A stretch of 64,000 bases of DNA from Nitrospirota bacterium. GTDB lineage: Bacteria > Nitrospirota > Thermodesulfovibrionia > Thermodesulfovibrionales > JdFR-88. The notes under the pieces are model-generated. The model did not search any database and was not told where the DNA came from. It saw nothing but the letters and a program-made list of their open reading frames with translations. Where the stretch lies: contig JAKAJM010000002.1 of assembly GCA_021813765.1 (NCBI GenBank), forward strand, positions 28,853-92,852. Direction: 5' to 3'. Both the position numbers and the translations under genes were made by a program. Positions 22,195 through 62,909 of this stretch are shown here, in pieces. Numbering within the stretch: position 1 is the stretch's first letter; every line of letters starts with the position of its first letter.

Positions 22195-23592
22195 ATGAAT
22201 AAAGACATTTTCCTGGTAGATACGCACTGCCATCTGGACATGTCCCAGTTCGATGCGGACAGGGCGGAGGTGCTGGAGCGCGCAGGGGCCGCGGGCGTAA
22301 GGCATATCATAACTGTAGGCTCCGGGGTGGAGAGCTCGATGGCGGCTGCGGCCATTGCGCGGTCGAATGACCTTGTTCATGCGGCTGTGGGAGTGCACCC
22401 TCATGACGCGAAGGATTTTAACGACGGCGCGTTTAAGGCCCTCCTGGCGCTTGCCAGGGATAAAAAGACCGTCGCTGTCGGAGAGACCGGGCTGGACTAC
22501 CATTACATGCACTCCCCGAGGGAGGCCCAGATAGAGGCCTTTAAAAGGCATATAGAGCTTGCGCTTGAGGTTGGGCTCCCGCTCATAGTGCACTCGCGGG
22601 AGGCCGCGCGGGACACGGTCCGCGTACTTGGGCAGTATTGCGGCGCCGGAGGGCCGCTCAGGGGCGTGCTGCACTGCTTCTCCGGGGACATGGAGATGGC
22701 CGGAGAGCTGGTTGCGATGGGCTTTTATATATCCTTTGCGGGACCGGTAACCTTCAAAAGCAAGAGGTCATCGGAGCTTGCCGGCATAGCCGCCTCGGTC
22801 CCGGATGACCGCATTCTCGTTGAGACCGATGCGCCCTATCTTGCCCCTGAGCCTTTCAGGGGCAAAAGGAACGAGCCAGCCCATGTCAGGCACACGGCGG
22901 AAAAGCTGGCACAGATCAGGGGCATCAGGGCGGAAGATGTGGCAAGGATAACATCTCTTAACGCCTTCAGGCTTTTTGGGATAGGCGAGGTGTCAGGCGA
23001 AGGCGTGATCGCCTATCCCATACGGGACAGCCTTTACCTGAACGTTACAAACAGGTGCTCGAACAACTGCTCTTTTTGCGTGCGGATGAAGGGTGATTTC
23101 GTGAAAGGGCATATGCTCAGGCTCCGGCGGGAGCCTTCCGCCCGGGAGCTGCAGGAGGCCATCGGGGACCCGGCAAAATATTCGGAGGTGGTCTTTTGCG
23201 GCTACGGGGAGCCCCTCATGCGACTGGACGTCGTAAAAGAGGTTGCCGGATGGGTGAAGCAGAGGGGCGGAAGGGTAAGGATAAACACAAACGGGCAGGG
23301 CAGCCTGGTAAACGGAAGGGACATCCTGCCGGAGCTTGCCGGGCTCGTGGACTCTCTTTCGATCAGCATGGACGCCCAGGACGAAGAGACTTACGGGAGG
23401 CTGTGCAAACCTTTGCACAAAGATGCGTTCAGGGCGCTCCTAGACTTCATTTCGGGCTCCGTCAGGTATGTGCCGGACGTGCAGGTGACGGTCGTTGATA
23501 CGGAGGGTGTGGACGTGGAGGCATGCCGGGCGCTTGCAGGGTCTCTGGGGGTGAAAAACCTGCGGGTAAGAAAACTGGACGTGGTGGGTTAA
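22195..23592 (+). CDS. fusion protein: TatD-family metal-dependent hydrolase (N) + radical SAM domain (C)
   Basis: The N-terminal ~255 aa read DTHCHLD...GETGLDY...HSR...HCFSG...ETDAPY (TatD). The C-terminal ~190 aa carry NRCSNNCSFC (CX3CX2C, 23056-23079) and a GYGEPL-type SAM-binding motif. Confidence 0.85.
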   Translation: MNKDIFLVDTHCHLDMSQFDADRAEVLERAGAAGVRHIITVGSGVESSMAAAAIARSNDLVHAAVGVHPHDAKDFNDGAFKALLALARDKKTVAVGETGLDYHYMHSPREAQIEAFKRHIELALEVGLPLIVHSREAARDTVRVLGQYCGAGGPLRGVLHCFSGDMEMAGELVAMGFYISFAGPVTFKSKRSSELAGIAASVPDDRILVETDAPYLAPEPFRGKRNEPAHVRHTAEKLAQIRGIRAEDVARITSLNAFRLFGIGEVSGEGVIAYPIRDSLYLNVTNRCSNNCSFCVRMKGDFVKGHMLRLRREPSARELQEAIGDPAKYSEVVFCGYGEPLMRLDVVKEVAGWVKQRGGRVRINTNGQGSLVNGRDILPELAGLVDSLSISMDAQDEETYGRLCKPLHKDAFRALLDFISGSVRYVPDVQVTVVDTEGVDVEACRALAGSLGVKNLRVRKLDVVG

Positions 23593-37323: not shown

Positions 37324-38451
37324 TCATCTGCCCGTTAATTTCCTCAGCAGCCTGCCAGGCAGCGTATCGGCCGCCTTCAGCGCCCCGTGAGGGCACACCT
37401 CTACGCAGCAGTAGCACCTGATGCATTTGTCGTAGTCGAATTCGAGTTTTTGTTTTTCTTTTGCCCCGCTTTTATCTTTGCGTCTTATCGCCTTGGCCGG
37501 GCAATATTTCCAGCATTCCCCGCACATGGCGCAGGCGGCGGCATCGCTTTCCGGCCGCTGCACGAAATGTCTTCTCAGCGTGCCGTGCATCCATTTGGGT
37601 CCGAACACGACGGAGCCCGCAAGAGGAAACTTGAAGCCGCTGACGGCAGGGGCCTCCCCGTCCACGGAGATCTCCTCTGCCGCAAGCCCGGCCTCTCTTG
37701 CCGCACGGCAAGTAGGCAGCTCCCCAGGTTCCATGCCAAGCATCCGGCACACCGCTTCATCGAGGGCAACTGCATCCCTGCTGCCCATGAGCACGCCAAG
37801 CTCGCGCGGGGTGCCGCTTCTTCCGGGCCCTTGCCCTTCCATCGCAAGGACCCCGTCAAGCACGGTAAAGGAAGGTTTCACCGCCCTGTATATCTCCACC
37901 AGAAGCCGCGCAAACATGTCTTTGTCAACCCCGGTCCTGAAATGCCACTCCGGCTTGCTCAGCCCGACCACGCAGCCAAACAGGTTTTTCACGCCCAGGG
38001 TAAGCACCATCTGGGCATGGGTTTTCAGCTTCGGAAGGTTTATAAGCGTGTCCGCGTTAAGCGCGTCCCTGGCGATGGAAAGGGTGCTGAAAGGATGGCC
38101 TGCCGCCACCTGCGCCGAGTCCCTGAACTCCCTGTATTCGACCGGCAGTCCGTCAAGCGCCTCCCTGATGCCGCTTTCCATCAGTATCTTCTCGAAGGAC
38201 CCCATTGCCGGACTGTCAGAAATTACCGGGAAGGCGCCGCGCTCCAGCACATACTCCGCGGCGGCCCTGACCACCAGCGGATGGGTCACGATGGCCTTTT
38301 CGGGCGGCGCGGGGGCCAGGAGGTTGGGCTTTATAACCACCCGGCTGCCGCGGACGATGCTCTCTCCGCCAAGGGAGTCCATTATCCCAAAGAACGCGGG
38401 CCGCAAAGTCCCGTAATCGTATTTTGTCTTTCTTATGATGACCTGGCGCAT
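37324..38451 (-). CDS. DUF362-domain protein with C-terminal 2x[4Fe-4S] ferredoxin domain
   Basis: ...RVVIKPNLL...THPLVV... (DUF362-like) plus CAMCGECWKYCP and CIRCYCCVEVCP. Confidence 0.75.
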   Translation of the reverse strand: MRQVIIRKTKYDYGTLRPAFFGIMDSLGGESIVRGSRVVIKPNLLAPAPPEKAIVTHPLVVRAAAEYVLERGAFPVISDSPAMGSFEKILMESGIREALDGLPVEYREFRDSAQVAAGHPFSTLSIARDALNADTLINLPKLKTHAQMVLTLGVKNLFGCVVGLSKPEWHFRTGVDKDMFARLLVEIYRAVKPSFTVLDGVLAMEGQGPGRSGTPRELGVLMGSRDAVALDEAVCRMLGMEPGELPTCRAAREAGLAAEEISVDGEAPAVSGFKFPLAGSVVFGPKWMHGTLRRHFVQRPESDAAACAMCGECWKYCPAKAIRRKDKSGAKEKQKLEFDYDKCIRCYCCVEVCPHGALKAADTLPGRLLRKLTGR

Positions 38452-54848: not shown

Positions 54849-55562
54849 TCAGGCCCCGCCTGCGGAGGCGGCCATGCCAGCCTCCGCAGAGATATCGCTC
54901 AGTTGCCCCGCATGCATCCTGAACCTTCTGCCGGCCTTTTCCGCAAGGCCCCGGTCGTGCGTAACCAGGACAAATGTAATCCCCATGTCCCGGTTTATCC
55001 TGCCAAAAAATTCCATCACCTCAGCCTCGGTCTCCTCGTCGAGGTCGCCGGTGGGCTCGTCGGCCAGAAGCAGCTCCGGCCTGTTCATGATGGCCCTCGC
55101 TATTGCCACCCTGCGGCGCTGTCCGCCCGAAAGCTGGAACGGGCGCGAATTCACCTTGTCCGAAAGGCCCACAAGCTCAAGATACTCCATGGCCCGCTTC
55201 TCCCTGCCGCCGCTTCGGTCCTTGGAGAAGATCGTTGGCAGCAGAAGGTTCTCCTTGGCGGTCAGAACGGGCACAAGCGAGGAGAACTGGAAAACGAACC
55301 CTATCTTGGACGCCCTGTAGTCCGCCAGTCCGTCTTCGCCCATGCTGTACACGTCCTGTCCGTCCACAAGGACGCGGCCGGCGGTGGGGTTCAGCACGCC
55401 TCCAAGGATCGAAAGCAGGGTCGTCTTGCCGGAGCCGGAGTGCCCCATGATGGATATGAAGTCCCCCTTTTCCAGGGCGAGGTTGGCGTCCCTGACCGCC
55501 GTGAACTCGGAGTCTCCTATCTTGAAGACCTTGCTCATGTGCTCGATAACGGCCTGTGGCAT
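54849..55562 (-). CDS. ABC transporter ATP-binding protein (MacB/FtsE-type)
   Basis: GHSGSGKTT, LSGGQRRRVAIARAI, LADEPTGDLD. Confidence 0.9.
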   Translation of the reverse strand: MPQAVIEHMSKVFKIGDSEFTAVRDANLALEKGDFISIMGHSGSGKTTLLSILGGVLNPTAGRVLVDGQDVYSMGEDGLADYRASKIGFVFQFSSLVPVLTAKENLLLPTIFSKDRSGGREKRAMEYLELVGLSDKVNSRPFQLSGGQRRRVAIARAIMNRPELLLADEPTGDLDEETEAEVMEFFGRINRDMGITFVLVTHDRGLAEKAGRRFRMHAGQLSDISAEAGMAASAGGA

Positions 55563-55576
55563 CTCTGTATTTCCTC

Positions 55577-56263
55577 CTATGCGCCGGATTCTCCCCCGGC
55601 GCTCTTTATGCCCGATTTCATTTTTTTCATGAGGTCATCGGCCAGCCCCTGGTTGAATTTCACGAGCGCCTCATACTGCTTCATCGCGGCCTTTCTGTCT
55701 CCACTCCGCAGGTATGCGTAACCCAGGTTGTATATGGCGGTGGCGTAGTGCGGGCGCAGTTTTATGGCCTTTTTGAGGGCGGCCAGTTCACCTCTGCGGT
55801 CGCCCGTCCGTCCATAGGCCGCTCCAAGGTTGTTGTAGGCCACGGCATACGAAGGCATATACCTTACAGCCTTCCTGTAGGCCGCCACGGCTTTCCGCGG
55901 CTTGTTGCAGGCGTCGTAAGACATGCCCATCTTCAAATAGGTGTAGCCGTCTGGTTTCAGGCGGGCGGCCCTGCCGTAGGCCCGGGCGGCCTTGCCAAAC
56001 AGGTTGTTCTCGTAATAGAGGTCCGCCATGTCGTACCACGCACCCGCGTCGCCAGGTTTTTCCTGAAGGCGCTTTTTAAGGAGCAGGAACCTGCTCTGGC
56101 CCTGGTCCTCTATGACTGTCCCGGTCTTCTGCTGCGGCCCTTTTTTTTCGCAGGAAAAAAGCGCGGGCATCACGCAGGCAAGCAGCAGGACAAGGGCTGC
56201 CGCGGCGTACCCGGCAAAAAAGGGAGCGTTCTTTTGTCTCATGTTTTTTTCCCTCTCATTCAC
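55577..56263 (-). CDS. TPR-repeat protein, probable lipoprotein
   Basis: A signal segment ends ...LLLACVMPALFSCEKK (lipobox-like LFSC). It is followed by about 5 TPR units (AWYDMADLYYENNLFGKAARAYGRAARL..., AYNNLGAAYGRTGD...). Confidence 0.8.
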   Translation of the reverse strand: MNEREKNMRQKNAPFFAGYAAAALVLLLACVMPALFSCEKKGPQQKTGTVIEDQGQSRFLLLKKRLQEKPGDAGAWYDMADLYYENNLFGKAARAYGRAARLKPDGYTYLKMGMSYDACNKPRKAVAAYRKAVRYMPSYAVAYNNLGAAYGRTGDRRGELAALKKAIKLRPHYATAIYNLGYAYLRSGDRKAAMKQYEALVKFNQGLADDLMKKMKSGIKSAGGESGA

Positions 56264-57458
56264 CTTTTCTTACCGCTTCATACGGCTCCATCCTGCTTGC
56301 CATCGCCGCCGGTATCAGGGAGGAAAGCATCCCCGTGAGCAAGGAAAAGACCACCGCGCCCGCCACAAGCTCCGCCAGGGTGGATGCCCGCGGCAGCAGG
56401 TAAGGCAGCCTCATGCTGTGGAGCAAAAGGCCCTTGAAAAAATAAAGGAGCGCAGAGCCCGTTACCAGGCCAAGCATGCCTCCGGGCAGGGAGATCCAGA
56501 TGGCCTCGTTCATTATGAGGCCGAATATGTGCCGCCTTTTGGCCCCCATTGCCATCATAAGCCCAAGCTCCCTCTGCCTCTCATTAACTATCATATAGAA
56601 GGCGAAGCCCATCATGAGCAGCGCCAGCACCCATATGATGAAGCTGGCCGCGACGATCCCCTTAAGGAGGCCCGCCAGCTGCTTGCGGACAGTGCTTATC
56701 ACCTTGTCCGAAGCGATGGCCTTCACGCCGGGGATGGCGTTTTCTATCTTTATGGACACCCTGTCCGGGCTGTATCCTTCCTCGTCTTTCACCAGGACGG
56801 CGGATATCTGGTTTCTGTTTATGGAGATGGGCTGCATGGCCCTCTCTTTTGACTGAGCGGCCATGTTGTATGCCGCGTCCATGGTCATGAAAACGGACCT
56901 GTCAAAAAAATTCATGCCGGTCGACTCCATCGTCCCCATGACCTTGAACGAGGTGCCGTAAAAAGGGATGGTGTCCCCCACGGCCACAGGCACCAGGCGC
57001 CCGACGATTATCTCGTTTCCCGTAAGCGGCTTGCCAAGGTGGTTTGCAAGCCACGGAGCCACCGTGAAATCATTTTTTGGATTGAAGGCGACAAGAAAGG
57101 TGTTGACATTGAAGCAGCAGCTGAAGCTGGCAGGCTTTATGAAAAGCTGCGCGGAGGCGCTCTTTACGCCTTCCACTTTCCTGACCTCGCCCAATACCGC
57201 CCTGCTCATGTAAAAACTCTCCGGCTTGCCCGAAAGCAGTGCCGAGCGGGCCTGGCTCTCGTATTTCTCCGGCACGACGAGCACGTCCGCGCCGAGCCTG
57301 TACGTGCCTATCCTCAAGGCGTTTCTCATGCTGGAGATGAAAAGCGTGGCTGAAAAGATGGTGCCCGTCACAACTGTTACGGCAAGCAGCAGAAGGATGC
57401 TCCTTATGACTTTTCTTCTTATGTTCTTGATGGCAACGGAAACAATGTTCAGTCCCAA
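56256..57458 (-). CDS. ABC transporter permease, FtsX/MacB-like (periplasmic core domain + FtsX domain)
   Basis: 400 aa with an N-terminal TM segment, a periplasmic domain of about 220 aa, and three C-terminal TM segments including ...ERQRELGLMMAMGAKRRHIF.... Confidence 0.85.
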   Translation of the reverse strand: MGLNIVSVAIKNIRRKVIRSILLLLAVTVVTGTIFSATLFISSMRNALRIGTYRLGADVLVVPEKYESQARSALLSGKPESFYMSRAVLGEVRKVEGVKSASAQLFIKPASFSCCFNVNTFLVAFNPKNDFTVAPWLANHLGKPLTGNEIIVGRLVPVAVGDTIPFYGTSFKVMGTMESTGMNFFDRSVFMTMDAAYNMAAQSKERAMQPISINRNQISAVLVKDEEGYSPDRVSIKIENAIPGVKAIASDKVISTVRKQLAGLLKGIVAASFIIWVLALLMMGFAFYMIVNERQRELGLMMAMGAKRRHIFGLIMNEAIWISLPGGMLGLVTGSALLYFFKGLLLHSMRLPYLLPRASTLAELVAGAVVFSLLTGMLSSLIPAAMASRMEPYEAVRKGE

Positions 57459-57654
57459 AACGTTTTCCCCCGGTGAGGCTCTTTTTTGATTTTCGGTCTA
57501 CAAAAAAGCCATGGGATGCCGGCTTTTAAAAACGGCGGCAACGTGCCTCTTTCCTTTTAAAAAGCGGGGGCGGATTTTTTATTTTTTATTTTCGTTGTTT
57601 TTCCGCCCCCTTGCCTTTGCCTGTCAGTTTTTTTTGTTTTTTTCTTGCTCCGGC

Positions 57655-58713
57655 CTAGAACGTTTTGGGTTTGTGCTTCATCCCCCAGGCCACGGTCATG
57701 CCGCAAAGAAGGGGAGACCCGTTGTCCATGCGTACGCGTATGCCGTAAGCGCCGTGGCAGCTGTAGCAGGTGGAGACCTTCTTTTCTATCACGTGCGTGG
57801 CGGCATCCATAAGGATGAGCTCGCTGTCGTTCTTGTAAGTCCTTGCGGTTATCAGCGCGGTCTTGCCGGAGGGGCTGAAGACTACGTCATGCACGAACAT
57901 TCCGGGCATCTTGATGTGGTCCACTATCTTGTTGGTGGCGGTGTCGATCACGATGATCTCCGGAGTGTGCGTGCCGGGCTTCAGGCCGGGGTCGAACTCG
58001 TTGGCGCAGGTGACCCAGAGCTGCTTGCCGTCTGGCGTCATCCTTATCTGGTGAAGGAAGGTCATGGTGCCGTCGTGTATCTTCTGGACCACCTTCTTGG
58101 TCTTCCAGTCGAGCACGTAAACGGTGCCGTCCGGCATGCCGGAGACGTACGCGTACTTCCGGTTTTTGGTCCACTGAATGCCGCAAACGCTTGCGCCAAC
58201 AGGGATCTTGTCGGCCAGCTTCATCGTCTTGTAATCGAACTCATAGACGTGGCCGTCCGCCATGTCCTCAAAATAGATATGCTTTCCGCCCGGGCCTATG
58301 ACCGCGTCGCAGAACTTGTTGCCTATCTTGTATTGCCTGGATTCCGCGCCCGTGTCCAGGTTGTATTTGACGACGCTTCCGTCAAGCAGGCCGACATAGA
58401 GGTCCTTCCCGATAAGGGCGCTGCCATGGATGCCGCCCTGTCTTTTTACGGCCTCGATATGAATGCCCGCGACCGTCCCTTCCATCTCGCTGCCGGCCTC
58501 GGTTATCACTATCCTGTCATTCTGTATGTCGGTCGGCGGCTTGAGCGTGGCCAGGTTGATCATGGCCAGGTGCCCCCCGTGCCCGGCGATGAAGGCGATG
58601 CCGCTCAAGTTCTCCCTTCCGGCCGCCTGTACCGAGTCTGTGTGAGAGGACGAAAGATAATAGCCCCCGGCAAGCAAAGCGAGCGCCGCCATAACCAGCA
58701 AAACTTTCTTCAT
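57655..58713 (-). CDS. exported beta-propeller protein (YVTN-like repeats) with C-terminal CXXCH motif
   Basis: A signal peptide (MKKVLLVMAALALLAGG), repeated ...DG..vYV.. blades, and STCYSCHGAYG about 40 aa from the C-terminus. Confidence 0.75.
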   Translation of the reverse strand: MKKVLLVMAALALLAGGYYLSSSHTDSVQAAGRENLSGIAFIAGHGGHLAMINLATLKPPTDIQNDRIVITEAGSEMEGTVAGIHIEAVKRQGGIHGSALIGKDLYVGLLDGSVVKYNLDTGAESRQYKIGNKFCDAVIGPGGKHIYFEDMADGHVYEFDYKTMKLADKIPVGASVCGIQWTKNRKYAYVSGMPDGTVYVLDWKTKKVVQKIHDGTMTFLHQIRMTPDGKQLWVTCANEFDPGLKPGTHTPEIIVIDTATNKIVDHIKMPGMFVHDVVFSPSGKTALITARTYKNDSELILMDAATHVIEKKVSTCYSCHGAYGIRVRMDNGSPLLCGMTVAWGMKHKPKTF

Positions 58714-58969
58714 TTAATTCCTCCCTTTAGAAAAACTGTTTTCCTTCCCGATTCCCCTCGTTTGAAGAAACACTGCAGCAGCTTTCGTGTTCAAGAAGAG
58801 TTTTTGTTTTGGGCCTTTCCACCTCCTTCCCACAGGACCGGCAAAAAAAGCTTGTGAGGACGATCACGTTCTTCCCGGCCTAAATATAAAGCAGCAAAAT
58901 CGGGGTTTTCAACTTGAAATTACAATTATGAGAGGATGTTTTTACCGTGGATTGAAAAAATTGGGAAGC

Positions 58970-58998
58970 GGAAAATTGAGGGGGGCAAAAGCCCCCCC
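58970..58998 (-). terminator. candidate terminator after the yeeE-like gene
   Basis: The minus strand reads GGGGGGC-TTTT-GCCCCCC followed by TCAATTTTCC, about 50 nt after the TAA at 59045-59047. Confidence 0.45.
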
Positions 58999-59044
58999 GG
59001 CAGGACGAAATGAAAAAAATTCCGGTTTTTCTGTTTTTTCGCCT

Positions 59045-60139
59045 TTAATCCCTCATCGGCTTTATGAACTTGAAGTACACCATTGTCCAGTTGCCAAGCA
59101 CGATAAAGAGGGTGGCCACTATGCTGGAAATCGCCAAGGTCGACACACCGGTCAACCCGTGACCGATGTTTCAGCCGCCTGCCGTAGCGGCGCCGAATCC
59201 CATCATCACGCTGCCGCCAAAGACGGTCATAAGCTCGGCGGCCGTGGGCACCTTCAGCTTGAATTCCTTGAGGCCCTTTGAGCTAAGGAAAGCGCCAAGC
59301 GGGACCATCAGGATATAGATGGCGCTCCAGGTTATCTTGAGCCCGAAAAAATTGAACATCGGGTATGAGGAGGCGCTGTTTCTCTGGATAACCGCCAGGA
59401 AGGCCTCCCCAAGGGGCCCGGTGAAGGAAATGCCCCTGGGCATCCCGCCGTACACGCCGGAGGCCCACCACGCGATTACGACCAGAATGCCCACCAGGGC
59501 GCCGGTCACGGCCCATTTATAGCCCTTGGCGGAGCTCTTGGCGAAAGGTTTGCCCTTGAGCACGAATATCCCGCCAACCACGGTGAAGATGGCTATTATT
59601 ATCCATTTTGCAAGATGGCCCCCGCCAAAGAGGTCCGGCAGGCTGATGCCGTATATGGTGCTTCCGTCGGGGGCGGTCATCGTCACCTTGTAGCTCCTCA
59701 TGAGATCATAGACGGGCTTCAGAACGCCGTGCGTGGTGGTGATGATGCCAAGTCCAAAGCCCAGGACCGCCACAAGGGCGGCGGTGAGGCCTTCCCCAAC
59801 CCTGTAGAGGATGCCGCTGCCGCACCCCCCGGCAAGCACGATGCCCAGGCCGAATATGTACCCGCCAACTATGTTCGCTACCGGGGCGAACACCTCTCTT
59901 GCAAGGGTGAAGGGACCGTACGCGTCCCCGCCAAGCCAGTGCATGTCCTCAAGAAAGTTGGCGCCTATCATGGCGATGATCAGGGCAAAGATGTACGCCC
60001 TGAAGAGAGTCAGGTCATTGATGAAAATGACGTCCCTGAAAGCCGTGTTCATGCAGTACCTTCCGCGCTGCAGCACGAAGCCGAAAGCCAGCCCGATAAG
60101 CAGCGCCGTAAGCGCGATCATCACATTCCCCGGTTGCAT
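59045..60139 (-). CDS. YeeE/YedE sulfur-transport-family membrane protein, candidate selenoprotein (in-frame TGA at 59171-59173 read as Sec)
   Basis: The start MQPGNVMIAL is preceded by AAGGAGGATTA. Family motifs present are QRGRYCMNTAF and LAGGCGSG. The ORF-track product stops at ...GAATAGG-TGA. The same frame continues NIGHGLTGVSTLAISSIVATLFIVLGNWTMVYFKFIKPMRD to TAA. A 10-bp hairpin starts 1 nt after the TGA. Confidence 0.6.
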
Positions 60140-60230
60140 TAATCCTCCTTGATCGGTTGTTTTGTCCCCCATGGGGACCTTTCTTTTTTTATTGCGAACA
60201 TAATAATCAATAAAAATCGAAATTTCAACG

Positions 60231-61025
60231 TCATTCTCCAATTTTAGGTATGATGCCACTGACGAGAGCTTTTTTATAAACCCTCATGAAAAACCATATG
60301 GCAGCCAGGATGTACACAATATTCAGTCCGCAAGCGTATTCGAACTGCGCCGGGGGGAATGCCCCGCTTGAGATGACCGCCCTCATGCCTTCAAAGGCGT
60401 GCGAGGCCGGTATGAACATGGCGACCGTCCGCAGGGCGCGGGGAAGCACCTTTACGGGATAGAACACCGCGGAGAAGGGCAGGAAGAGAAAGGCCAGCGC
60501 CCAGGCCAGTATTTCCGCCTCCAGTCCGTAGCGCAGGATGAGGGCGGTGGTGAGTATCCCTATGGACCATCCCATCGCGACAAGGTTGAGGACAAGCGGA
60601 AGCAGGTATATGCCGAGTTTGAAGATGCTGAAGGAGTAGAGCAGCCATCCCAGGGAAGATGTCACGGCAAAGGCGGCAACCACCTTTATGGCGCTTATCG
60701 CCATGAGCGCCGCAAGGTACTCCGTGACGGTGACCGGCGCGACAAAGACGTTTATGAGGTTCCTGGACCACATGTCTTCGAGAAAAGAGACCGATATCCC
60801 CTGTTCCGCCCGGAAAAGGACATCCCAGAGTATCAGCGCCCCTATGAAATAGGAGACGAATACCGGCATCCGGCCGAAAGAGGAGCGCTGCAGGTAGAGG
60901 GTCACGAACCCCCAGAGCAGCAGGTCCATTGTGGGCCAGTAAAAGGTCTCAAGAAGCCTGGTAAGGCTCCTTCTGTAAAGGTATATCTGCCTCAGGCAGA
61001 GGGCGGCGATATGGCGGGGTCTCAT
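60231..61025 (-). CDS. ABC-2 type transporter permease
   Basis: 264 aa with six TM segments and an N-terminal ...LRQIYLYRRSLTRLLETFYWP... typical of the ABC-2 family. The start overlaps the ATPase stop codon (ATGA). Confidence 0.8.
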   Translation of the reverse strand: MRPRHIAALCLRQIYLYRRSLTRLLETFYWPTMDLLLWGFVTLYLQRSSFGRMPVFVSYFIGALILWDVLFRAEQGISVSFLEDMWSRNLINVFVAPVTVTEYLAALMAISAIKVVAAFAVTSSLGWLLYSFSIFKLGIYLLPLVLNLVAMGWSIGILTTALILRYGLEAEILAWALAFLFLPFSAVFYPVKVLPRALRTVAMFIPASHAFEGMRAVISSGAFPPAQFEYACGLNIVYILAAIWFFMRVYKKALVSGIIPKIGE

Positions 61026-61753
61026 CTTCCGCTTTCCAGGACCTTGAAAAAGAGCTCTTCCAGGTTTTTTACTTCGTATCTGCCGATGAGCTCGCCGGAG
61101 GGGCCCTCAAGCAACGCCTTGCCGCCCTTCAGAAAAAGCACGCGGTCAGACACCTCCTGCATCTCCCACAGGTTGTGCGAGGTGTATATCACGGAGAGGC
61201 CTTTTCCCCTGCTGAGCTCCACAAGGAGCCGCCTTGTCCTCCTGGCGATCTCGGGGTCTAGTCCGGCGGTGGGCTCATCAAGCAGAAGCACTTCCGGGGT
61301 GTTTATCATCGCCTTTGCGAGGCACAGCCTCATCATCTGCCCCGAGGAAAGCGTCCTTGCGCGCTTGTGCCTCATTTCATAAAGCCCGAACATCCGAAGC
61401 GCCTCCGAGCATCTGCGGGCAGGTTCGGAGACCTCGTACATTATGGCGTAGACCATGAGGTTCTCCCAGAGAGTGAGCGTTTGCGGAAGAAAGACATAGT
61501 TGGAGGCAAAGTTCATCCGTTTGAGTATGCCGGTCCGCGTGGCCGGAGACAGGAGCTCTCCGAAGACACGGATGTTTCCCTCGGTTGGAAGTATCAGCCC
61601 AAGTATAAGATGAATAAGGGTTGTCTTGCCGGCTCCGTTTGGGCCCAGTATGCCAAGTATCTGGCCCCTTGAAAGACTGAAGCTTACGTTCTTGAGCGCA
61701 TACGAGCCTGGCTCGAACGACTTGCCCAGGCCCTCTATATCAACAATGCCCAT
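61022..61753 (-). CDS. ABC transporter ATP-binding protein (ABC-2 subfamily partner)
   Basis: GPNGAGKTT, LSSGQMMRLCLAKA, LLDEPTAGLD. Confidence 0.9.
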   Translation of the reverse strand: MGIVDIEGLGKSFEPGSYALKNVSFSLSRGQILGILGPNGAGKTTLIHLILGLILPTEGNIRVFGELLSPATRTGILKRMNFASNYVFLPQTLTLWENLMVYAIMYEVSEPARRCSEALRMFGLYEMRHKRARTLSSGQMMRLCLAKAMINTPEVLLLDEPTAGLDPEIARRTRRLLVELSRGKGLSVIYTSHNLWEMQEVSDRVLFLKGGKALLEGPSGELIGRYEVKNLEELFFKVLESGR

Positions 61754-61869
61754 AAGGCGAATCTATATGCTTTTGGAGGCATAGTCAATGCGCAGCCCTG
61801 GCACCCGCCGCCACGGGCTGTAAAAAAAAGCTCTCCCGGATTTTTTTGTGCGGGTGCACTTTTTTGCCA

Positions 61870-62064
61870 TTGGCATCTGCCCGGCCCTTTCGTTCGGCCG
61901 CGCGGTTCCGGGCATATACAGAACATCCGCTAAGGACGTCTTCAGGGCGAGGAGGCGAACGGTCGTCAGGATGCGTTCCTTTGGTATCCGTCCGCTTTGC
62001 TCCCTCCCTCAGGGACCGGGCAGATGCCAATCTATACTTGCTGGAAATCCCCAGCAATCTGCCC
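61870..62064. other. structured non-coding segment with alternative helices (function unknown)
   Basis: TTGGCATCTGCCCGG (61870-61884) is the perfect reverse complement of CCGGGCAGATGCCAA (62016-62030). The latter can instead pair with ATCTGCCC (62057-62064). A 7-bp hairpin TTGCTGG/CCAGCAA lies at 62038-62057. No convincing ORF is present. Confidence 0.45.
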
Positions 62065-62282
62065 GCAGAATCCATGAAGAGCCAAAAGCAAAAAAAGGCG
62101 TCCGGGACCTCAGGCAGGGAAAAACATCAGTATGCCGGGGATCCCCGACGCAATCAGGGGGGTATTTTTTAAAAAAACTTTCTTTGGGGGCAGGGCGGGC
62201 AGGAGGTTTTTTATTGTGCCTCCTGCCGCCCTGGGGAGGGTAAATCCAGGCCCGTTCCGTTTTTTTCCTCCGGACGCGGCCC

Positions 62283-62909
62283 TTAATGTTTAAGCGCTTC
62301 CTCCTGCACATATGCCTCTCCGGCCTTGCCTACAAACTCCGGAGCGGGCTTCATGGTCTTTTCCCCCGGGTGCCAGTTGGCCGGGCAGACCTCCGCCGGG
62401 TGGCCCGACTTGTAGATGTTGGCCTGAAGCTTCCTCAAAAGCTCCTCGGCGTTCCTGCCGATGTCGATGTGGTTTACTTCAGCGCTTACGACCACTCCGT
62501 CCGGGTTTATTATGAAGGCGCCTCTTTGCGCCAGCCCGCTTTCCTCGTCGTACACGCCAAATGTCCTTGAAAGTTTCCCTGCCGGGTCGGCCCCCATCTG
62601 ATATCTGACATTCTTGAGCATCGGCTCATCCATCTGCCAGGCAAGATGCACGAACTTGGTGTCCGTGCTTACCGTAACGAGCTCGGCGCCCGCGGCCCTG
62701 AAGTTTGCGTGCTGGCCTGCCAGGTCAGCAAACTCCGTGGCTCAGACGAAAGTGAAGTCAGCCGGGTAGAAGAAAAGGACTGTCCATTTCCCCTGCCTTC
62801 TAAGCGCCTCAAGACCTATCTGCCCGAAACCGCCTGTTTCGGGGTCGAAGGTCTCGATCAGGAAATCGGGAACCTTCTGGCCGACCCTCAGCCCGCAGAA
62901 TCCTTCCAT
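62283..62909 (-). CDS. typical 2-Cys peroxiredoxin with Sec (TGA at 62742-62744) at the peroxidatic position
   Basis: MEGFCGLRVGQKVPDF...VLFFYPADFTFV-TGA-ATEFADLA...LAWQ...AEVCPANWHPGEKTMKP. The TGA replaces the C of the invariant FTFVCPTE motif and the resolving Cys is retained. The ORF track splits the gene into 62742..62987 and 62283..62651. Confidence 0.8.

Follow-up and report, generated by a model that had tools for sequence, protein, structure and literature searches.

A putative selenocysteine at the entrance cysteine of a YeeE/TsuA-type transporter from Nitrospirota

Among described proteins, the closest to the gene considered here are the YeeE transporters of Spirochaeta thermophila and Escherichia coli. 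The S. thermophila protein has the shape of an hourglass, and three cysteines, C293, C91 and C22, are lined up across it where it is thinnest (Tanaka et al., 2020, PMC7449682). C293 lies in an indentation on the periplasmic side, where it contacts bound thiosulfate at position I; the substitutions C293A and C91A abolish complementation, and the equivalent residues of the E. coli protein cannot be replaced by Ser (PMC7449682). The relay runs from C293 to C91, then to C22 and finally to C17 of YeeD, and C293 has been named the first cysteine (Ikei et al., 2024, PMC11073785). Here we analyse 64,000 nucleotides from a Nitrospirota bacterium (assembly GCA_021813765.1, contig JAKAJM010000002.1, positions 28,853 to 92,852; hereafter the window, with positions counted from its first letter), in which a yeeE/tsuA-like gene carries an in-frame UGA at the position of this first cysteine. 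From sequence comparison, the codon is very probably read as selenocysteine (Sec).

The family has already been catalogued among selenoproteins. “YeeE/YedE family” is a listed selenoprotein family with 5 genomes (Peng et al., 2016, Supplementary Table S3) and figures in the selenoprotein tables of two reviews, from 2022 and 2026 (PMC9312934, PMC13188914), the catalogue entry giving PF04143, one Sec, the motif GUxSG and the example WP_012471001.1 (PMC13188914). Zhang and Gladyshev (2008) and Peng et al. (2016) give the family name and counts only and do not locate the Sec, and deep-Sep does not mention the family. In the published literature we found neither experimental work on a Sec-containing YeeE nor any account of where the Sec falls in the YeeE structure. 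The catalogued proteins share with the one described here the PF04143 domain, a single Sec replacing a conserved Cys, and a status of bioinformatic prediction only. Where do they differ? The Sec context in the window is GG-U-NIGHG (GUxxG) rather than GUxSG. Judged by motif string alone, the catalogued GUxSG fits the central-cysteine motif GGCGSG (the C91 column), which keeps its Cys here at residue 106, whereas the Sec lies here in GGU[N/T][I/V]GH. Within this selenoprotein family, which is catalogued but has yet to be characterised, the Nitrospirota protein represents a novel variant or, at the least, a further member that annotation has missed; it introduces no new principle.

The interrupted gene and its orthologues

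The gene occupies 59045-60139 on the minus strand and comprises 364 codons, including the UGA at codon 323, followed by a TAA stop. Its frame opens at an ATG at 60139, reaches the TGA at 59171-59173 and, as the initial annotation had pointed out and the sequence bears out, stays open for 41 sense codons (NIGHGLTGVSTLAISSIVATLFIVLGNWTMVYFKFIKPMRD) up to the TAA at 59045-59047. The ATG is preferred as start to an upstream GTG at 60259 because a Shine-Dalgarno-like AGGAGG (60144-60149, minus strand) stands 4 nt 5′ of it and because homologues start with MQPGNVM. Further upstream lies a sigma-70-like promoter match, TTGAAA-17-TATTAT (60200-60228, minus strand), which is a consensus match only.

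Translated through the UGA, the protein matches Pfam Sulf_transp (PF04143) at 218.3 bits against a cut-off of 27, over residues 25-352 and the whole profile (1-310 of 310); this end-to-end match is obtained only when the tail is included. A phmmer comparison with S. thermophila YeeE (PDB 6LEO) aligns residues 11-360 (E 6.5e-45) and puts the UGA exactly on Cys293, equivalent to Cys302 of E. coli YeeE: GAVTAGG-C-NIGHFLTGV in 6LEO reads GAATAGG-U-NIGHGLTGV here. The suggestion that the TGA occupies a conserved family cysteine is thereby substantiated. The C-terminal extension past the UGA (59045-59170, minus strand; 41 codons plus TAA) supplies the NIGHG loop and the last transmembrane helix and aligns with residues 294-330 of 6LEO. 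The two remaining family cysteines are kept, as C29 (QRGRYCM, the RGRYCM cysteine recognised at the outset) and C106 (GGCGSG), and positions 29, 106 and 323 correspond to C22, C91 and C293 of the S. thermophila relay. Like S. thermophila YeeE (6LEO/8J4C) and E. coli YeeE, the protein thus has the full-length fold, the three relay positions and the motifs QRGRxC, GGCxSG and GGxNIGH. It is predicted to be a polytopic inner-membrane protein of the Sulf_transp fold and, by homology, a YeeE/TsuA-type sulfur-anion transporter of 364 residues.

The evidence that carries the selenoprotein reading is comparative. The DNA of 167 related loci was gathered from genome and metagenome collections and by exact protein look-up. 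At the Cys293 column 19 loci (17 distinct sequences) have TGA and 109 have TGC or TGT. The TGA loci are metagenome-assembled genomes (MAGs) of Nitrospirota and metagenomes, in independent assemblies from many samples. Every TGA and Cys locus retains the tail, with 40-44 further in-frame codons ending in GNWTMVYFKFIKPM. In the TGA loci the ratio of non-synonymous to synonymous polymorphism (pN/pS) is 0.17 in the tail, as against 0.27 in the 41 codons preceding the TGA, which argues that the tail is translated and selected. The two forms can be very close: the Sec form P0102 and the Cys form P0010 are 87% identical, and in slightly more distant full-length homologues a Cys precedes a tail that hardly differs from that of the window protein.

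Database gene calls tell the same story from the other side. The closest proteins are calls of 315-349 residues that end exactly at ...G(A/S)xxGG (P0001-5, 7-9, 13, 23, 78, 82, 102), those nearest to the window protein ending at ...GAATAGG; P0013, whose record is named YeeE/YedE family protein, has 319 residues and is truncated at the UGA. Since the gene calls of the clade stop at the UGA, the Sec site is evidently unrecognised by current annotation. It could be argued that these calls, made by gene callers and carried in GenBank annotation (P0001-P0013), are correct, and that the TGA is a genuine stop yielding a 322-residue protein, with the downstream 41 codons untranslated or a decaying remnant; that no Sec machinery is seen within the window would fit this. 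We regard such a truncation as extremely improbable. The tail stays in frame in all 17 distinct TGA loci under a constraint at least as strong as that of the upstream coding sequence, and the shortened protein would be without the equivalent of the essential Cys293, the NIGHG loop and the last transmembrane helix. Moreover, a terminator-like hairpin, rich in G+C and with a T-rich stretch behind it (58980-58998, minus strand), lies 3′ of the TAA and not of the TGA.

Truncations at the second-Cys column were also sought among representative sequences with P0006 as query. This search gave none that was convincing, P0236 (ending ...LAGGC) and P0167 (with no starting Met) being probably contig-edge fragments; one representative, P0129, is truncated at the third-Cys column.

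Probable selenocysteine decoding in this organism

A second gene with TGA at a catalytic cysteine had been reported nearby, and it is indeed present 3.5 kb from yeeE: a 2-Cys peroxiredoxin gene at 62283-62909 on the minus strand, its start inferred from relatives, with a TGA at 62742-62744 in the place of the peroxidatic Cys (FYPADFTFV[U]ATE). The product matches AhpC-TSA at 112 bits, retains the resolving Cys (EVCPANW) and is a member of the known Sec-peroxiredoxin family; in the related loci L001 and L165 the gene is split into calls of 55 and 112-124 residues. Its TGA constitutes independent evidence of Sec decoding in this organism. Among the in-frame TGAs with long flanking open frames across the window, only those of yeeE and the peroxiredoxin gene are credible. 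Cultured Thermodesulfovibrio, of the same phylum, have 3-4 selenoproteins each (Peng et al., 2016, Table S2).

Is UGA perhaps a sense codon throughout this genome? TGA is the commonest ordinary stop in the window, ending 17 of its 39 large open reading frames (ORFs), which rules out global recoding under a variant genetic code and implies that recoding is site-specific. Read-through without Sec, by a near-cognate Trp or Cys tRNA, and an assembly error or pseudogene are formally possible, with nothing specific in their favour; they are barely plausible, for the same TGA recurs in independent assemblies from many samples, a UGA falls exactly at the Cys column twice within one window, and the conserved, covarying hairpin described below stands at the spacing of a selenocysteine insertion sequence (SECIS) in the TGA forms only. 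The alternation of Sec and Cys among orthologues, the conserved and selected tail and the second selenoprotein gene nearby together give strong support to decoding as Sec, as the initial annotation had proposed. It is the comparative data, rather than the window alone, that make this more than a chance arrangement.

Two overlapping hairpins downstream of the UGA

Two mutually exclusive hairpins can be drawn in the mRNA just past the UGA. To compare them, 81 nt around the UGA were aligned for the 17 distinct TGA loci and numbered from the U of that codon (nt 1). Hairpin A (59145-59169, minus strand; nt 5-14 paired with 20-29) was recognised from the outset: it has 10 bp with one G·U pair and a CGGGU loop, and it is the minimum free energy (MFE) structure of the region, by only a slight margin over shuffles (z = -1.8). 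Hairpin B (59137-59158, minus strand; nt 16-23 paired with 30-37, loop nt 24-29) reads GGGUUGAC-CGGUGU-GUCGACCU. Its upper stem, of 8 bp, begins 12 nt past the UGA, and its apical loop, of 6 nt with GG at positions 2-3, begins 20 nt past it; in the window a 4-bp lower stem is added across a 1-nt bulge (59160-59163 with 59133-59136).

Hairpin B is the likely SECIS, as judged by covariation and by published rules. Its upper stem is paired in 134 of 136 alignment cells, and compensatory changes occur at 3 of the 14 pairs (G-C to C-G, U-A to C-G), with U-G/U-A and G-U/G-C alternation besides. The covariation score of the 14-pair hairpin as a whole exceeds that of 500 out of 500 shuffles and of all slid controls, and RNAalifold, run unguided, returns hairpin B and not hairpin A. 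The TGA loci keep on average 7.9 of the 8 pairs as against 3.0 in the Cys loci (Mann-Whitney p = 5e-12). Even where the peptide is the same (NIGHGLTGVSTLA), as in three of the Cys homologues, only 2, 4 and 6 of them are kept, so that the structure is not dictated by the protein sequence. Synonymous diversity is 0.40 in the first 13 tail codons, which make up the SECIS segment, and 0.58 in the remainder. The bSECIS model allows apical loops of 3-9 nt and upper stems of 4-16 bp; it places the loop 16-37 nt from the UGA, sets an MFE of at most -7.5 kcal/mol and requires a G at loop position 1 or 2 with G or U next to it on the 3′ side (PMC13188914). The corresponding values for hairpin B, a 6-nt loop (C-GG-UGU), 8 bp, 20 nt and -9.8 kcal/mol, fall within the model throughout. 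The peroxiredoxin hairpin of the same genome has its apical loop 22 nt past the UGA, close to the 20 of hairpin B and unlike the 11 of hairpin A.

The likeness extends to the SECIS of the E. coli fdhF type, which is likewise a stem-loop within the coding sequence just past the UGA, with a small apical loop in which GGU stands some 22-27 nt from the U of that codon. Hairpin B differs from it in a loop that has 6 nt instead of 4 and lies one codon further 3′, and in having no evident bulged U in the upper stem. Its 5′ arm and loop (GGUUGAC-CGGU) resemble those of the fdhF SECIS (GGUUGCA-GGUC), a resemblance that serves as a lead and not as a test.

Alternatively, hairpin A could be the functional SECIS, or the two could alternate, with Sec inserted all the same. 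In the window hairpin A equals hairpin B in stability (-14.7 against -14.8 kcal/mol); it has a G at position 2 of its loop, is intact in the closest relatives of the window and, like B, keeps more of its pairs in TGA than in Cys loci (8.8 against 6.1 of 10). However, across the 17 TGA loci it is only 88% paired, with 20 of 170 cells unpaired and a double change at one pair. It is broken in the divergent L018 and L086, where 4 of 10 pairs are lost, and has 1-2 mismatches in L009 and L011; its covariation does not go beyond that of shuffles (64/500). Its loop, 11 nt past the UGA, lies outside the 16-37 nt range. We therefore consider a role for hairpin A as SECIS, put forward in the initial annotation, unlikely; the fold that was described is real, and its proposed function is better assigned to hairpin B.

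Several observations weigh against the Sec reading with hairpin B as its SECIS. ARAGORN finds no tRNA-Sec in the 64-kb window, and neither inspection of its ORF list by eye nor Pfam scans of ten ORFs reveals a recognisable selA, selB or selD; a search of the whole window at Rfam gathering thresholds returns two tRNAs only. Any Sec machinery would thus have to lie elsewhere in the genome. By neighbour joining, the Sec forms fall into essentially one clade of Nitrospirota MAGs, with the Cys form L010 basal, so the comparison of hairpins between TGA and Cys loci is not phylogenetically independent. The conservation of hairpin B is also partly forced by the conserved peptide, and the two folds are isoenergetic in the window. 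Lastly, Rfam holds no bacterial SECIS model, which leaves published rules and covariation as the tests of the hairpin, and a permissive Rfam search of 59040-59260 gave only a chance snoRNA match.

With Sec at the UGA, the following course of events would be expected. The hairpin at 59137-59158, with GGU in its apical loop, would recruit SelB·GTP·Sec-tRNA(Sec) to the ribosome; Sec would be inserted at the UGA, and the 41 further codons for the NIGHG loop and the last transmembrane helix would be translated up to the TAA. The residue would then stand as the first cysteine of the three-cysteine relay, C293 of S. thermophila YeeE, at the entrance facing the periplasm.

Cargo, neighbourhood and implications

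What would such a transporter import? It may carry thiosulfate or something closely akin to it, whether an oxyanion of sulfur or selenium or a sulfane species. Both NCBIfam and the PDB give thiosulfate-type TsuA/YeeE proteins as its best matches, and all pathway motifs are conserved. The thiosulfate label nevertheless rests on homology only, for two reasons that count against it. The NCBIfam TsuA models score below their cut-offs (NF052577, 248.9 bits against 400; NF041049, 131.7 against 645), and a regular-expression search for a small CPxP ORF found no plausible YeeD/TusA-like partner in the 64-kb window. Nor is there a YeeD/TusA-like neighbour among the gene calls or Pfam matches of the related loci, although a partner elsewhere in the genome is possible. 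The protein thus differs from S. thermophila and E. coli YeeE in having Sec as its periplasmic first cysteine, in having no adjoining YeeD/TsuB gene and in falling short of the TsuA equivalog cut-offs. The hosts may also differ: for an anaerobic Nitrospirota bacterium thiosulfate is more likely to be an energy substrate than a cysteine precursor.

It is therefore conceivable, if not the outcome we favour, that the selenoprotein carries something other than thiosulfate, either sulfane sulfur or polysulfide, in the manner of SoxT import, or selenite or selenosulfate. The missed equivalog cut-offs speak for this, as does the absence of an adjoining YeeD/TsuB gene, given that YeeD is essential to YeeE-mediated thiosulfate uptake (PMC11073785). 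SoxT proteins, which resemble YeeE, bring in sulfur for oxidation and signalling (PMC11582611). A selenolate would, besides, be a poor hydrogen-bond donor for the S-H-S relay proposed for thiosulfate, and the genes conserved around yeeE encode a Sec-peroxiredoxin, ABC exporters and a periplasmic haem-c β-propeller and are not those of cysteine synthesis. Against it stand the thiosulfate-type best matches and motifs and the low scores of the selenium-linked YedE/FdhT models (NF033796, 74.6 bits against 350; TIGR04112, 50.8 against 200). YedE/FdhT is a distantly related membrane protein of the Sulf_transp superfamily, to which the match here is partial; YedE is linked to selenium by gene neighbourhood and not by Sec content, unlike the protein described here.

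The two Sec genes belong to a conserved block on the minus strand (54849-62909). After the peroxiredoxin gene it comprises an ABC ATPase (61022-61753), an ABC-2 permease (60231-61025), the Sec-YeeE gene, a β-propeller/cytochrome c gene (57655-58713), a MacB/FtsX permease (56256-57458), a TPR protein (55577-56263) and a second ABC ATPase (54849-55562), and it contains no TusA/YeeD-like gene. The block recurs, whole or in part, in L001, L165, L166 and L167. Directly 3′ of the Sec-YeeE gene, the secreted β-propeller has a weak Cytochrom_D1/YNCE-like Pfam match and a conserved C-terminal CxxCH haem-c motif; this arrangement is conserved in four diverged relatives (L001 11436-12500, L164 4625-5686, L166 1618-2727, L167 4350-5402), and the β-propeller may be a periplasmic partner of Sec-YeeE. 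Elsewhere in the window, and unrelated to Sec-YeeE, a gene at 37324-38451 on the minus strand encodes a DUF362 protein whose C-terminal domain is a 2x[4Fe-4S] ferredoxin (Pfam, 189 bits). A single 465-residue ORF (22195-23592, plus strand) fuses a TatD-like hydrolase to a radical-SAM domain.

For annotation, the consequence is direct: this gene and at least 18 orthologue loci are cut at the UGA (for instance in the calls of 319-322 residues P0001 and P0013) and lose an essential residue together with the last helix, and a family-specific rule for the Sec column would mend the truncated calls. Integral membrane transporters are very rare among selenoproteins, and in this one the Sec would lie in the permeation pathway itself, on the periplasmic side. 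Nature offers a matched pair in the 87%-identical forms, with Sec in one and Cys in the other at the key residue of the entrance, in a transporter whose structure has been defined.

Why should a selenol be placed at this entrance? Being of low pKa, largely deprotonated at physiological pH and more nucleophilic, it might improve the capture or transfer of substrate there. Sec at the entrance sits uneasily with a relay made purely of S-H···S contacts, a hint of transient covalent chemistry or of a different substrate, and a natural Sec in this place would serve as a probe for nucleophilic or covalent chemistry as opposed to the proposed S-H-S hydrogen-bond relay. Tentatively, a Thermodesulfovibrionia-like clade of Nitrospirota may have put Sec at the substrate-capturing Cys of a TsuA-type transporter, at a site distinct from that of the catalogued YeeE/YedE selenoproteins, with a relay that is covalent or a substrate that is another chalcogen species. 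If so, the selenolate, a strong nucleophile and a poor S-H···S donor, would imply a relay that proceeds by transient covalent Se-S and S-S bonds and not by hydrogen bonding alone; alternatively, the subfamily would handle another chalcogen substrate, possibly together with the neighbouring haem-c β-propeller.

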